This document shows, piece by piece, positions 23,813-33,438 of a DNA stretch of 34,445 bases. Every line of letters begins with the position of its first letter. Positions within the stretch are counted from its first letter, which is position 1. This DNA is from a virus. Its lineage: Duplodnaviria > Heunggongvirae > Uroviricota > Caudoviricetes. Position numbers and translations under genes: made by a program. The stretch is from the IMG/VR virus record IMGVR_UViG_2617271086_000002, positions 1 through 34,445 of that record; one strand, written 5' to 3'. The notes below the pieces were generated by a model. That model was not told the origin of the DNA. It ran no database searches and worked only from the letters and a program-made list of their open reading frames with translations.

Positions 23813-23888
23813 TGGTGCTGGTTAACGGACTTGAACCGCTACCCATTCGCTTACAAGGCGACTGCTCTACCATTGGAGCTAAACCAGC
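23813..23888 (-). tRNA. tRNA with anticodon UGU (tRNA-Thr), 76 nt including encoded CCA
   Basis: Minus-strand sense sequence GCTGGTTTAGCTCCAATGGTAGAGCAGTCGCCTTGTAAGCGAATGGGTAGCGGTTCAAGTCCGTTAACCAGCACCA. It has a 7 bp acceptor stem, GG in the D-loop, anticodon loop CTTGTAA, T-loop TTCAAGT and a 3' CCA. Confidence 0.7.
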
Positions 23889-23893
23889 ATATT

Positions 23894-23968
23894 TGGCGGG
23901 ACAGCGTGGACTCGAACCACGATAAGAAGGTTAACAGCCTTCCGTAATGACCTTTATACGACTGACCC
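23894..23968 (-). tRNA. tRNA-like gene with anticodon GUU (tRNA-Asn), 75 nt. It has two U-U mismatches and could be a degenerate copy.
   Basis: Minus-strand sense sequence GGGTCAGTCGTATAAAGGTCATTACGGAAGGCTGTTAACCTTCTTATCGTGGTTCGAGTCCACGCTGTCCCGCCA. It has a perfect anticodon stem (GAAGG/CCTTC), loop CTGTTAA, T-arm CGTGG-TTCGAGT-CCACG and CCA; acceptor pair 4-68 and D-stem pair 13-22 are U-U. Confidence 0.5.
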
Positions 23969-29592: not shown

Positions 29593-30410
29593 GCAATCCC
29601 CCTGTCTGCAAACTTCCCTTCCCGTACTCCCGTTAACGAATCTTCCCTCAGCAGGTAATCAAAATCTGCCGTCCAGCCAGTGTCGTTGTCTCCGAAGTAA
29701 AACGGCTTGGCCTGATGCACAAACGCCCTGACATACGCTCTGAAACCGTCCACGTTTGGCGTTTTCAGTTGCGGGATGATTTTCTTCAGGCGGCGTTTTC
29801 GTTTCTCGTTGACCGCAACAGCGTGTGGAAGTCTGTCACCGACTTCGGTGTTGTAGGCGTTCAGGAAGGATTCGTAGTCGATTCGTTCTGCCTTGCGACG
29901 TTCAGGTTTAACCTGCCCATCGCCGCCCCCGTTAGGGGGTAAGGGGGTATTTGTATTTATTGTCTTTTGTATATTGTCTTTTGTGTTTAGCCGACTTGGC
30001 TTATACCCATTAGCCGACTTGGCTAATGTTTTATTAGCTGTTTTAGCTAATGTTAAGCTGTCCTGGCTAATCCACTGCGAAACCACCTTGTTCACTCCGA
30101 TTTTCACGCCATCAGCAATGAGGAATTTACGCTCAATAAGCTGGCGCTTGGCAGCGCAAACATGAGTGTGATGAATACCTGTCATGGCTGCTATCTGCGT
30201 GTTTGTGAGTCGATCCATCGGCTTATTGAATCCGTATGTCTTGCGCATGATAGCGAGCATCACCTTCAACTGCCGGACGGTTAAATCAGCCATCAGCAGA
30301 CTGTCGGTAATCTCGTTAGCAACGCGCATGAAACCATCTTCGGTATCTGCCACGCGATGCTCCACGACCTCCAGTTGAGGCCTGTAATCAGCTAACTTAA
30401 CGACGCCCAT
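29589..30410 (-). CDS. Replication initiator (lambda O / P22 gene 18-like) with internal origin iterons
   Basis: 273 aa ORF with an N-terminal HTH-like region and a low-complexity central linker encoded by the iteron repeats. Confidence 0.75.
29935..30090. repeat. Candidate replication origin: direct repeats (iterons) and an AT-rich stretch inside the O-like gene
   Basis: TAGCCGACTTGGCT occurs twice (29988-30001 and 30011-30024), followed by TTAGCT-type degenerate repeats, and preceded by ttgtcttttgt twice. Confidence 0.6.
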
Positions 30411-30558
30411 GTTTCACTCCTGCTTTGGCTAGTCTGTAAACACCAACAAGGCGCTCTGCGAACGCCCTGTTATTTGCTGCGGCTACCACTAATCCCTCAG
30501 GTGAATCAGGGTGTCGAATCTCTTCTTTTTCCTGGTATTTCTTACGACGTTTTGTCAT
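30397..30558 (-). CDS. Small hypothetical protein between cII-like and O-like genes (53 aa; below the ORF-track cutoff)
   Basis: [53 protein letters not shown], with a strong AGGAG ribosome-binding site 5 nt upstream of the ATG at 30556-30558. Its 3' end overlaps the O start. Confidence 0.4.
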   Translation of the reverse strand: MTKRRKKYQEKEEIRHPDSPEGLVVAAANNRAFAERLVGVYRLAKAGVKHGRR

Positions 30559-30590
30559 AATTACTCCTGTGGATTGATCCAGGAATTCCC

Positions 30591-30887
30591 TCAGAATTGC
30601 ATATCAATTTGCTTAAAATCCTCGGTGGCGGCCGGGGATTTTTTCTTTGTGATTTCATCAAGCGCATACTTAAAAGCCCTGCTAATCGGACTGATGTCTG
30701 ATGCCATTCCGAAAGCACACAAGACCGAAGCAATAAATCTCCAGTCCGTTCTGCTTATCTTCGATTCATGACAGCCAATCATCTTTGCCAGACCGCGCTG
30801 GGTAAGCGTTGACAGGTTGATGAGTAAATCAGTTTCAGCGCGATCAATTTCTCGCTGTGTTGGCTTGCTGTAGCTTGCTTGTGCCAT
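30591..30887 (-). CDS. cII-like transcriptional activator (P22 c1 / lambda cII family)
   Basis: 98 aa ORF downstream of cro. Its C-terminus (..ATEDFKQIDMQF) parallels lambda cII (..ATERSEQIQMEF). Confidence 0.7.
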   Translation of the reverse strand: MAQASYSKPTQREIDRAETDLLINLSTLTQRGLAKMIGCHESKISRTDWRFIASVLCAFGMASDISPISRAFKYALDEITKKKSPAATEDFKQIDMQF

Positions 30888-30954
30888 TTGTTAATTTTCC
30901 TATATTGATATTGAGTTATAGCGGCACACCCAATGGATTTGCCGCTGATGTTTG

Positions 30955-30995
30955 CTCACCCGGTTAGAGGTGAAAGGCCAGAACTGTTAAAGAGC
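30955..30995 (-). promoter_or_regulatory. Candidate nutR (boxA plus boxB-like hairpin) between cro and cII
   Basis: Minus strand GCTCTTTAACAG (boxA-like) followed by a hairpin TTCACC-UCUAACCG-GGUGAG. Confidence 0.45.
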
Positions 30996-31002
30996 AATTT
31001 GC

Positions 31003-31188
31003 TTATGCCGCTTGGCGGTAAGCACTTTCTTGATACTTCAGGGCGCCAGCTGTAACGATTTCCAATCGATAGGCGTCTTTCTCTGGGATAACTTCTTTCC
31101 ACTGAGAGACTGCTGCATCGCTAATGCCTAGTGCTTTAGCAACAGCACGCTGGGTTCCGAAGTGGTCAATAACATCTTTTTTGTACAT
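31003..31188 (-). CDS. cro: Cro repressor (P22-type)
   Basis: 61 aa ORF (MYKKDVIDHFGTQRAVAKALGISDAAVSQWKEVIPEKDAYRLEIVTAGALKYQESAYRQAA) matching P22 Cro from memory. GGAG ribosome-binding site upstream. Confidence 0.85.
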   Translation of the reverse strand: MYKKDVIDHFGTQRAVAKALGISDAAVSQWKEVIPEKDAYRLEIVTAGALKYQESAYRQAA

Positions 31189-31199
31189 AGACTCGCTCC

Positions 31200-31268
31200 G
31201 AAATTAAAGAACACTTAAATTATCCACCAAAGGAATCTTAAGTCAAGTTTATTTAAGATGTCTTAACT
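31200..31268. promoter_or_regulatory. OR operator region with divergent PR/PRM (P22-type 18 bp operators)
   Basis: Near-palindromic 18-mers ATTAAAGAACACTTAAAT (31203-31220) and ATTTAAGATGTCTTAACT (31251-31268), plus a CTTAAG-centred site between them. The second operator abuts the c2 ATG. Confidence 0.65.
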
Positions 31269-31919
31269 ATGAATACACAACTGATGGGTGAGCGTATTCG
31301 CGCTCGCAGAAAAGAACTCAAGATTAGGCAGGCTGCCCTTGGCAAGATGGTTGGCGTGTCTAATGTTGCTATTTCCCAATGGGAGCGATCTGAAACTGAG
31401 CCCAATGGCGAAAACCTATTGGCCTTAGCCAAGGCTTTGCAGTGCTCCCCTGATTACCTGTTGAAAGGAGAGGATAGTCTTTCAAACATTGCCTATCACA
31501 GCAGGCATGATCCAAGAGGTTCGTATCCTCTAATTAGTTGGGTAAGCGCAGGATGTTGGATGGAAGCTGTAGAGCCATATCATAGGCGTGCAATAGATAA
31601 CTGGTACGACACAACGGTAGATTGTTCTGAAGACTCTTTTTGGCTCGACGTTAAAGGCGATTCAATGACTGCCCCGGCAGGACTGAGTATTCCTGAGGGG
31701 ATGATTATTCTCGTCGACCCAGAAGTCGAGCCACGTAATGGAAAGTTGGTAGTCGCCAAACTTGAAGGAGAAAACGAGGCGACATTCAAAAAGTTAGTTA
31801 TTGATGCCGGTAGAAAATTCCTGAAACCACTCAATCCACAATACCCAATGATTGAAATCAATGGGAACTGTAAAATCATTGGCGTTGTCGTTGATGCCAA
31901 GCTAGCAAACCTTCCTTAA
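31269..31919 (+). CDS. c2: C2 repressor (P22 c2 / lambda cI family, LexA-like autocleaving repressor)
   Basis: 216 aa ORF matching P22 C2 from memory, with an N-terminal HTH (QAALGKMVGVSNVAISQWERS) and a C-terminal S24 peptidase-like domain (..GDSM..). Confidence 0.9.
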   Translation: MNTQLMGERIRARRKELKIRQAALGKMVGVSNVAISQWERSETEPNGENLLALAKALQCSPDYLLKGEDSLSNIAYHSRHDPRGSYPLISWVSAGCWMEAVEPYHRRAIDNWYDTTVDCSEDSFWLDVKGDSMTAPAGLSIPEGMIILVDPEVEPRNGKLVVAKLEGENEATFKKLVIDAGRKFLKPLNPQYPMIEINGNCKIIGVVVDAKLANLP

Positions 31920-31940
31920 GGGGCTTTCGCCCCTTTTTTA
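31920..31940 (+). terminator. Rho-independent terminator of the repressor transcript
   Basis: GGGGC-TTTC-GCCCC followed by TTTTTTATTT, immediately after the c2 stop. Confidence 0.7.
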
Positions 31941-31945
31941 TTTCC

Positions 31946-32060
31946 CGTTAAAAATCAAAGACAAACTAAATTCACGCCCATAAAATTAAGTTTTCTTCAA
32001 AAATGAACTTGACCAATAAATTAAGAAGTCTTAAATTTAAGCCATCAGCAGGACGCTGGA
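31946..32060 (+). promoter_or_regulatory. OL/PL region (operator-like sites upstream of the N-like gene)
   Basis: AT-rich region containing the operator-like sequence ATTAAGAAGTCTTAAATT and related half-sites, between the c2 terminator and nutL. Confidence 0.45.
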
Positions 32061-32083
32061 AGCCAAACGGAACAGATTGGCAG

Positions 32084-32123
32084 GCTCTTTAACATCGACG
32101 GACTCTCAACCTAACCGTTGAGA
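32084..32123 (+). promoter_or_regulatory. Candidate nutL (boxA plus boxB-like hairpin)
   Basis: GCTCTTTAACA (boxA-like, 32084-32094) followed by a hairpin TCTCAAC-CTAACC-GTTGAGA (32104-32123). The loop motif CTAACC is shared with the nutR candidate. Confidence 0.5.
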
Positions 32124-32233
32124 CCAGAACTTGAGTGGTTTTGGGGATGGCGCGAATTGCAGCTGCAAGACAGCGATCGAGAAGATAAGCACCTCGACGC
32201 GTCATGCGCCAAAGCCACTTAAAGGAGACCATC

Positions 32234-32506
32234 ATGGTAACCATTGTCTGGAAAGAATCCAAAGGTACGGCAAAAAGCCGCTACAAAGCTCGCAGAGCAG
32301 AACTTATTGCCGAGCGACGCAGTAATGAAGCACTGGCGCGAAAAATTGCGCTAAAGCTCTCTGGTTGCGTCAGGGCAGATAAAGCAGCATCACTCGGAAG
32401 CCTTCGCTGCAAGAAGGTAGATGAATGCAGTGGAAGTATTTGCCTGCCAAACGTAGCCATTTACGCGGCAGGCTACCGGAAATCAAAACAACTGACAGCG
32501 AGGTAA
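32234..32506 (+). CDS. N-like early antiterminator (P22 gp24 family). Start at the ATG at 32234, which has an AAAGGAG ribosome-binding site.
   Basis: 90 aa ORF with an N-terminal Arg-rich motif (GTAKSRYKARRAELIAERR) and a C-terminus LPNVAIYAAGYRKSKQLTAR resembling P22 gp24. Confidence 0.7.
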   Translation: MVTIVWKESKGTAKSRYKARRAELIAERRSNEALARKIALKLSGCVRADKAASLGSLRCKKVDECSGSICLPNVAIYAAGYRKSKQLTAR

Positions 32507-32509
32507 GTG

Positions 32510-32734
32510 ATGAATCAGACATACATTCCATCATGCTTGAGAAATCTGCCAAAGCAGAAAGCAAAGCCCCGCAAGCAAGCCATAAAGGACGCTAAGGCAG
32601 AAGTTATCGATAAGGCCATTAACCTGCTTAGAGAGGAGTTAAGGAGTGAAAAGCTCAACGGAATGCTGATGCCTTATCAGCGCGGATATCTTTCGGCGAT
32701 TAGTAAGCTGGAAGTATTGAAGAGTGAATTATGA
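32510..32734 (+). CDS. Hypothetical Lys-rich small protein (first gene of the accessory cassette)
   Basis: 74 aa ORF with a GAGG ribosome-binding site, starting 4 nt after the N stop. Confidence 0.45.
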   Translation: MNQTYIPSCLRNLPKQKAKPRKQAIKDAKAEVIDKAINLLREELRSEKLNGMLMPYQRGYLSAISKLEVLKSEL

Positions 32735-33423
32735 ACTATCTGGAATTTCCGGATGGTTCATTGTTTTGGCAGCAAACCACTTATTTGAGAGGAATTAATA
32801 TGTCATCAATCCGCTTAACTACGAGAATGAAAGAGGAAATCGCTCGTAACGCTTTAATTAAGCCTGGGGTTTTCACTGAACTTGAAGAAGTAACAAAGTT
32901 AAAGAACCAGCTTGCACTTGACGCCAGAGTTATTGCGTTTGGCGGTAAAAAGAAAACTGAGGAAGTGGATCAGTTATCATCCAAGTTGGTAGCTATAAGT
33001 GAAGAACTTGAAAAGATGGGATGTTCATTTTACTCATACGATGTTAGTTCTACTTCAATTTATCTTACTGTATCTGGCAGAAGGGTTGGATGGCTTTCAT
33101 ATGGGGAAGACGGCAACGGCGAAGATATATTGCTCCCTACTCCGACCAAAGATAAATGCATGTTTGACGCAGAACACGAAATAACAAAAAGGTTTGATGA
33201 AATCTGCGCATTGCAACAAAAACTTGAAGCCAAGAAAAAGGATATCGAATCAAATGTATGGGCTGCTTTGAACTCAGTCACAACAGTTAAGCGACTTATT
33301 GAAGTTTGGCCTGAAAGCAAAGAATTGCTACCAAAAGAAGCAGATAAAGCAAGTACAGCACTTCCTGCTTTACGGGTAGAAGATTTGAATAAGATGATTG
33401 GACTTCCTTCCGAGGCCGCATAG
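32731..33423 (+). CDS. Hypothetical AT-rich accessory protein (230 aa), predicted soluble with helical/coiled-coil character; function unknown
   Basis: Long ORF with ATGA coupling to the upstream gene. An alternative start at 32800 has a GAGAGGA ribosome-binding site. Sequence is visibly more AT-rich than the flanking N and c2 genes. The stop codon lies inside a terminator hairpin. Confidence 0.55.
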   Translation: MNYLEFPDGSLFWQQTTYLRGINMSSIRLTTRMKEEIARNALIKPGVFTELEEVTKLKNQLALDARVIAFGGKKKTEEVDQLSSKLVAISEELEKMGCSFYSYDVSSTSIYLTVSGRRVGWLSYGEDGNGEDILLPTPTKDKCMFDAEHEITKRFDEICALQQKLEAKKKDIESNVWAALNSVTTVKRLIEVWPESKELLPKEADKASTALPALRVEDLNKMIGLPSEAA

Positions 33424-33438
33424 TCGGCCTTTATTTTT
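33413..33438 (+). terminator. Rho-independent terminator overlapping the stop codon of the 230 aa gene
   Basis: AGGCCG-CATAGT-CGGCCT followed by TTATTTTT. Confidence 0.6.

Follow-up and report, generated by a model that had tools for sequence, protein, structure and literature searches.

The antitermination system described here lies in IMG/VR virus record IMGVR_UViG_2617271086_000002, whose 34,445 nucleotides were analysed at full length and are called the window below. It consists of a gene for an N-like protein and two nut sites, nutL (32084-32123, plus strand) and nutR (30955-30995, minus strand), and it is almost certainly the module for antitermination of early transcription in a lambdoid phage or prophage with the N/nut specificity of coliphage 21 (phi21). 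Judged from its genes and signals, the surrounding region is the divergent early-control region of a lambdoid phage in the lambda layout, with pL, nutL and N on one side and pR, cro, nutR, cII, O and a helicase gene on the other. A first-pass annotation made from the letters of the DNA had implied that a new specificity was present; this part of it did not hold, as the system is the classical phi21 N/nut system itself, which was not recognised at that stage, placed in an immunity region of the imm21 type. The system is already known and nothing about it is new, because it was described in 1985 and the structure of its peptide-RNA complex has been solved. The antitermination determinants of lambda, phi21 and P22 were compared by Franklin (1985, J Mol Biol 181:75), according to the citation given in PMC9074901.

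The identification is carried by comparison with the phage 21 record OL657228.1, in which boxA-R, nutR, tR1, OR1-3, OL1-3, the pL start, boxA-L, nutL and an antiterminator gene are annotated. When the annotated features were extracted, a stretch of 71 nt that includes nutL and one of 66 nt that includes nutR proved the same as in phage 21 base for base, so that neither nut site differs at any position of its boxA, spacer or boxB. The decamer GCTCTTTAAC has exactly two perfect matches within the window, and these are the boxA elements (GCUCUUUAAC in both cases) of nutL (32084-32093, +) and nutR (30986-30995, -), the same as the annotated boxA-L and boxA-R of phage 21. The boxB of nutL, UCUCAAC[CUAACC]GUUGAGA, occupies 32104-32123 (+, loop at 32111-32116) and forms a 7-bp stem with a 6-nt loop, while the boxB of nutR, UUCACCU[CUAACC]GGGUGAG, occupies 30955-30974 (-, loop at 30962-30967) and has six predicted pairs, a possible terminal U.G and again a 6-nt loop; both coincide with the annotated stem-loops of phage 21. 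The two nut sites share boxA (GCUCUUUA) and a short spacer before boxB, of 10 nt in nutL and 11 nt in nutR, as is found in the phi21-type class. According to the map of open reading frames (ORFs), Pfam, a promoter scan and annotation transferred from phage 21, nutL is placed between pL and N and nutR between cro and tR1/cII, each in the sense of its transcript. The composite pattern GCTCTTTAAC-N8-30-CTAACC was matched twice in the window and never in any of 100 dinucleotide-preserving shuffles.

The earlier reading had put a boxA-like element and a CUAACC-loop hairpin on both early transcripts, and exact matches and folds located all of them where it had placed them; its proposal that they are paired nutL and nutR sites agrees with the annotation of phage 21. 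The fold prediction that it suggested gave -7.3 kcal/mol for each boxB hairpin as a 20-mer. It can be said that nut sites can be picked out of raw sequence by a first-stage reader.

The protein partner is encoded by a 90-aa ORF at 32234-32506 (+), preceded by AAGGAG. Its residues 4-90 are covered by Pfam PF25694 N_peptide (63.0 bits, gathering cut-off 27.9), and it matches PHROG 271, "anti-termination protein N-like". The phi21 N arginine-rich motif (ARM), GTAKSRYKARRAELIAERR, is present, and over residues 8-29 (ESKGTAKSRYKARRAELIAERR) all 22 residues are the same as chain A of PDB 1NYB, the nuclear magnetic resonance structure of a phi21 N peptide-boxB complex whose RNA carries a CUAACC hexaloop. 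It is this hexaloop of phi21 boxB that the N peptide binds in that structure (PMC12550061). The ARM, the paired CUAACC boxB hairpins, boxA with its spacer and the placement of the sites all fit the phi21-type N/nut class, and by analogy with that class the module is predicted to be active in antitermination.

Relatives of the module were sought in two ways. A scan of genome contigs with N residues 1-61 gave 600 pattern matches, none of which was confirmed by tblastn, and a scan of viral contigs was used instead, in which 80 related IMG/VR viral loci were recovered with the window N and nutR was looked for within a 1.5-kb flank. A phi21-type ARM is present in 62 of the 80 loci. The hairpins are conserved in these close relatives, since the CUAACC nutL boxB is kept in 62/62 of them; it is unchanged in 61 rather than 62 because one locus has a closing-pair change. 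Within the flank that was searched, the nutR boxB is unchanged in 47 loci and present as a single-base variant in three. The remaining 18 of the 80 loci share residues 34-90 only; their ARM is DDNARNRRRARRQAQ, and a hairpin of the CUAACC type was found in none of them. The comparison of nut sites and ARMs across lambdoid phages, also suggested at first pass, gave the same picture among annotated phages, where the phi21-type ARM is paired with UCUCAACCUAACCGUUGAGA in phage 21, mEp235, VT1-Sakai, HK629 and PA28, and the P22-type ARM with GCGCUGACAAAGCGC in P22 and 1H12. In Yersinia phage 29.18 the ARM is divergent and the hairpin is also different. ARM type and boxB type co-segregate among relatives, in agreement with the early proposal of an N with its own ARM/boxB specificity, its ARM being the 1NYB peptide.

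Erwinia phage 59 (vB_EhrS_59) has a near-phi21 ARM, GTAKSRYKARRAAKVAERR, and manual reading of its pL leader gave a boxB-like hairpin, UCCGCU[CUAAUC]GGCGGG. Its stem is unrelated and its loop nearly the same, which is the pattern expected from selection on loop recognition. This phage suggests that the phi21 specificity class reaches beyond phages of E. coli. P22-type operator sequences are found at its pL (approximately 2060-2200), and a second, phi80-like N gene is annotated downstream in its record.

In megablast of window 30500-32800 against phage genomes, HK629, mEp235, phiv205-1, DE3, phage 21 and lambda imm21 matched at 98-99.5% identity, and the match of P22 (83.5%) was confined to cro-c2. 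The same module is found at 98-99% identity in viable sequenced phages, namely HK629, mEp235, Kapi1, phage 21 and DE3. A 1581-nt query running from nutR to the end of N was further compared with 5426 complete E. coli genomes, 1512 of which gave matches (446 with at least 80% query coverage), with identity as high as 99.5% across the entire query; in some of the matching genomes the RefSeq name is "transcriptional antitermination N peptide".

No observation contradicts this identification, but some cautions have to be set beside the evidence given above. Rfam at gathering thresholds returned only two tRNAs from the window and no match to a nut or boxB family, and no NCBIfam model matches the window N, so that neither collection offers independent confirmation. 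The fold energies of the hairpins are unexceptional against shuffled sequences (z from -0.3 to -0.9 in 66-nt contexts and from -1.8 to -2.5 for 29-mers), and in the isolated 29-nt context of nutL the minimum free energy (MFE) structure is one in which the spacer pairs with the 3' arm of boxB (-7.6 vs -6.9 kcal/mol). Moreover, the C-terminus of the window N is unlike that of phage 21 N, and therefore its contacts with host factors and polymerase could differ in detail from those studied in phi21 and lambda. The support for the nut sites is their arrangement and conservation, not thermodynamics. The modest z values, the commonness of short hairpins and the number of decamers when one mismatch is tolerated, which is four and no higher than chance, would all be consistent with hairpins that arose by chance as inverted repeats, or that are intrinsic terminators of the ordinary kind, accompanied by coincidental boxA-like decamers. 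This explanation is nevertheless extremely improbable: the composite motif has its two matches against none in the shuffles, there is no T run after either hairpin, neither was picked up by the terminator scan, and the sites are conserved in dozens of loci even beside differing immunity genes, as in VT1-Sakai. Both sites are moreover identical to the annotated nut sites of phage 21, which in effect already refutes it. It was rejected on the terminator scan and the shuffle test.

It may be asked whether a genuine phi21-type module has lost its function, the nut sites being kept by descent in an inactive remnant of a defective prophage. Similar DNA occurs in numerous chromosomes of E. coli, and among the prophages concerned there are surely defective ones; however, in the window N has an undamaged ORF and a good ribosome-binding site, no base of either nut site is substituted when compared with phage 21, the ORFs for repressor, cro, cII, O and helicase are full length, and the remainder of the window is approximately 95% identical to complete phage genomes, which makes a remnant very unlikely. 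The same low probability is given to the proposal that nutL is a structural switch, where the spacer (UCGACGG) would pair with the 3' arm of boxB (CCGUUGA), compete with boxB and regulate N loading. The alternative helix is the MFE structure not only of the 29-nt fold already mentioned but also of the 66-nt nutL fold; in the 206-nt leader fold, however, the boxB hairpin is the predicted form. Natural variation, on which the switch was rejected, is also against it: GACGAAC replaces GACGGAC in 20 of the 62 loci with the loss of one pair of the alternative helix, and a similar spacer (AACWTYGAYGR) is present in the nutL of P22, 1H12 and Yersinia. The spacer is conserved as sequence and not as a pairing partner, because in these phages it accompanies unrelated boxB arms.

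An active phi21-type module thus remains the preferred reading, and its course of action can be outlined from the lambda/phi21 paradigm, from which all of the following steps are inferred; the identity of the nut sites and ARM, the order of genes and promoters and the co-segregation come from the sequence itself. The general roles are those of boxA with NusB/NusE, of boxB with N, and of NusA/NusG (PMC4807359; PMC3526286). The promoters pL (rightward in the window) and pR (leftward) would be repressed by the P22/21-type c2 protein at six operators. After derepression each transcript would present boxA (GCUCUUUAAC), a spacer of 10-11 nt and a boxB with the CUAACC hexaloop. N would be translated from the pL transcript and its ARM (approximately residues 8-29) would bind boxB, while the central part of N would recruit NusA, boxA would recruit NusB/NusE and the C-terminal segment of N, of P22-gp24 type, would engage RNA polymerase. 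N and the Nus factors would in this way convert RNA polymerase to a termination-resistant form, allowing it to pass tR1 (between nutR and cII) and downstream terminators, and to reach cII-O-P in one direction and, in the other, the recombination and accessory genes.

The window N is not a full-length orthologue of phage 21 N, and its mosaic build is the one point at which the system departs from that of phage 21. DNA similarity to phage 21 ends at approximately window position 32425, and residues 62-90 (VDECSGSICLPNVAIYAAGYRKSKQLTAR) align with the C-terminus of P22 gp24 (GGSVLLPGVALYAAGHRKSKQITAR); no alignment of these residues with the phage 21 C-terminus was obtained, and the lambda/phi21-type segment (...YYSKP...GRQKIK...PLI) is absent from them. 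A mosaic junction is thus seen within gene N, at window 32425-32506 (+, codons 62-90), with residues 1-61 identical to those of phage 21 N and the last 29 residues like P22 gp24. Chimeras of this kind are already found in sequenced phages and are not new: the N of VT1-Sakai is 98.9% identical to the window N over all 90 residues, that of HK629 is nearly so, and the N of phage 1H12 is the reciprocal chimera, with a P22 ARM and a C-terminus of the window-N type. N C-termini have likewise been exchanged between the otherwise near-identical N proteins of P22 and phage L (PMC8022706). The junction is a further example of an RNA-binding and NusA-binding N-terminus swapped independently of the polymerase-binding C-terminus, and independent exchange of the two halves of N is a pattern on record for P22-like phages (PMC8022706). 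A chimeric N with a phi21 ARM and a P22-type C-terminus might have host-factor requirements unlike those of either parent. Neely and Friedman, and also Sen's group, have reportedly worked on another N protein, that of H-19B. An identity of the window N with it was rejected, as the H-19B protein is 127 residues long and its ARM is RSRRRER (PMC3526286), unlike the window N.

Between the nutL boxB and the ribosome-binding site of N, the leader contains a long hairpin at 32132-32221 (+), found by folding and by comparison of outer stems. In the 206-nt leader context the MFE is -73.7 kcal/mol (z -4.48), and none of 200 shuffles was equally stable. The leaders of P22, 1H12, PA28, VT1-Sakai and Yersinia 29.18 retain the outer stem (GGTTTTGG / CCAAAGCC); the length of the interior varies, and compensatory changes are seen at 9 of 33 pairs. 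The hairpin is similar to the RNase III hairpin in the leader of lambda N, in which nutL-bound N and RNase III are linked to control of N translation. It is a tentative and rather doubtful idea that the leader hairpin is a conserved element coupling nutL-bound N to control of N translation, or that the chimeric N has unlike host-factor needs. If true, leader-hairpin control of N translation would extend beyond lambda.

The immunity region that surrounds the module is of the imm21/P22 immC type: it combines a c2-type LexA-like repressor, a P22_Cro-type cro and ANTNAAGNNNNCTTNANT operators in two triplets. The repressor gene (c2/cI, 31269-31919, +) encodes 216 aa with HTH_3 and Peptidase_S24 domains. 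The gene cro (31003-31188, -; Pfam PF14549, 96.9 bits) is followed by nutR on the pR transcript. The 18-bp pattern ANTNAAGNNNNCTTNANT, with at most one mismatch, has only five matches, clustered at OR and OL on the two sides of the repressor gene; they coincide with five of the six annotated OR/OL sites of phage 21 at a constant offset of 29047, which bears out the P22-like operators noted at first pass. OR3-OR1 lie at 31203-31220, 31226-31243 and 31251-31268 (pattern search and phage 21 annotation), and OL3-OL1 at 31955-31972, 31984-32001 and 32019-32036 (two by pattern search, all three annotated in phage 21). The promoter pL (32009-32037, +; TTGACC-17-TAAATT, by consensus scan) overlaps OL1, and its start is at about window position 32044 by the phage 21 annotation (offset 29047). 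For pR (-), the consensus scan and the phage 21 annotation give a -35 element at 31246-31241 and a -10 element at 31224-31219. Right of the repressor gene a sequence scan found a terminator-like hairpin (31918-31935). An annotation of the region as immunity of the imm21 type, with nutL, nutR and N of the phi21 type, can be given confidently, and this has little import beyond annotation.

Past nutR comes the region of tR1, which transfer of the phage 21 annotation places at about 30905-30908, and the first gene after it is cII (30591-30887, -; Pfam Phage_CII, 114.5 bits). Antisense to its 3' end lies a strong terminator-like hairpin of 12 pairs with a T run (30615-30642, +), in the position of an oop-RNA-like feature annotated in the HK629 record. 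A small ORF on the minus strand separates cII from the gene for an O-like initiator (30410-29589, -; PHROG 345). At 29986-30071 this gene contains four direct repeats, AGCCGACTTGGCTAAT and variants of it, each about 16 nt long and set at intervals of 20-24 nt; they are probably the iterons of the origin, by analogy with lambda ori within O. The O-like gene is followed by a 458-aa ORF (29592-28216, -), a candidate DnaB-type helicase read from its translation and not from a family search. On the other side, the pL operon continues directly after N (32507-33423, +) with a 75-aa protein of PHROG 5305 and a 230-aa protein of PHROG 1965 that carries a complete Nmad5 domain (PF18757, "nucleotide modification associated domain 5", 238.8 bits); in mEp235 a Nun-like gene takes the corresponding position. 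After the Nmad5 gene the consensus scan, and no other method, marked a hairpin with a T run (33412-33431, +), a candidate for a terminator read through by N-modified polymerase.

Elsewhere in the window, the structural and lysis half (1479-23245) matches Escherichia phages vB_EcoM-611R5 and 606R2 at approximately 95% identity and Salmonella phage SEN34 at 82%, and encodes baseplate and tape-measure proteins of a myovirus-type virion module. In this element an early region of lambdoid imm21 type is thus combined with a tail module that is not of the lambda kind. Phage-borne genes for tRNA-Thr (TGT) and tRNA-Asn (GTT) lie next to each other at 23813-23968 (-).

Among known systems, phage 21 shares with the window the cro-c2-operator immunity region (98.2% identical) and residues 1-61 of N with the ARM solved in 1NYB. 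It differs in the C-terminus of N (AEEVERKQNRIYYSKPRSEMGVTCVGRQKIKLGSKPLI), which is unrelated to window residues 62-90, in the genes downstream of N, and in its lambda-like O and P, in place of which the window encodes an O like P22 gp18 and a candidate helicase of DnaB type. VT1-Sakai (the Stx1 prophage of E. coli O157:H7 Sakai) and HK629 carry the same N chimera of phi21 ARM and P22-like C-terminus as the window and a nutL like that of the window save one spacer base. In VT1-Sakai the nutR boxB is also the same, but boxA-R and the spacer are different (CGCTCTTTCATCATGG) and the cI/cro immunity region is unrelated; in HK629 the nutR loop is CUAACA. Salmonella phage P22 has the same genome architecture, a c2 repressor 94% identical and the same operator type; its boxA is likewise GCUCUUUA, and its nutL spacer is similar. 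The C-terminal segments of its gp24 and of the window N are alike (LPNVAIYAAGYRKSKQLTAR vs LPGVALYAAGHRKSKQITAR), whereas the ARM of gp24 (GNAKTRRHERRRKLAIER) differs, as the first-pass annotation had noted, and overall N identity is 39%. The window thus has neither the P22-type ARM nor the GACAA-pentaloop boxB of the P22 gp24/nut class, and its resemblance to that class is limited to the C-terminal 25 or so residues of N and to boxA with its spacer. The P22 nutL boxB (GCGCUGACAAAGCGC, read from AB426868) has 5 bp and a pentaloop, and in the boxB of lambda (read from NC_001416) the stem has 5 bp and the pentaloop is GAAGA or GAAAA; with their 6-7 bp the stems in the window are indeed longer than both, as the first-pass annotation had supposed. 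Phage lambda belongs to the same mechanism class and has its nut sites in the same positions relative to pL/N and cro/cII, but its boxA is CGCUCUUA and its ARM, repressor and operators are unrelated to those of the window.

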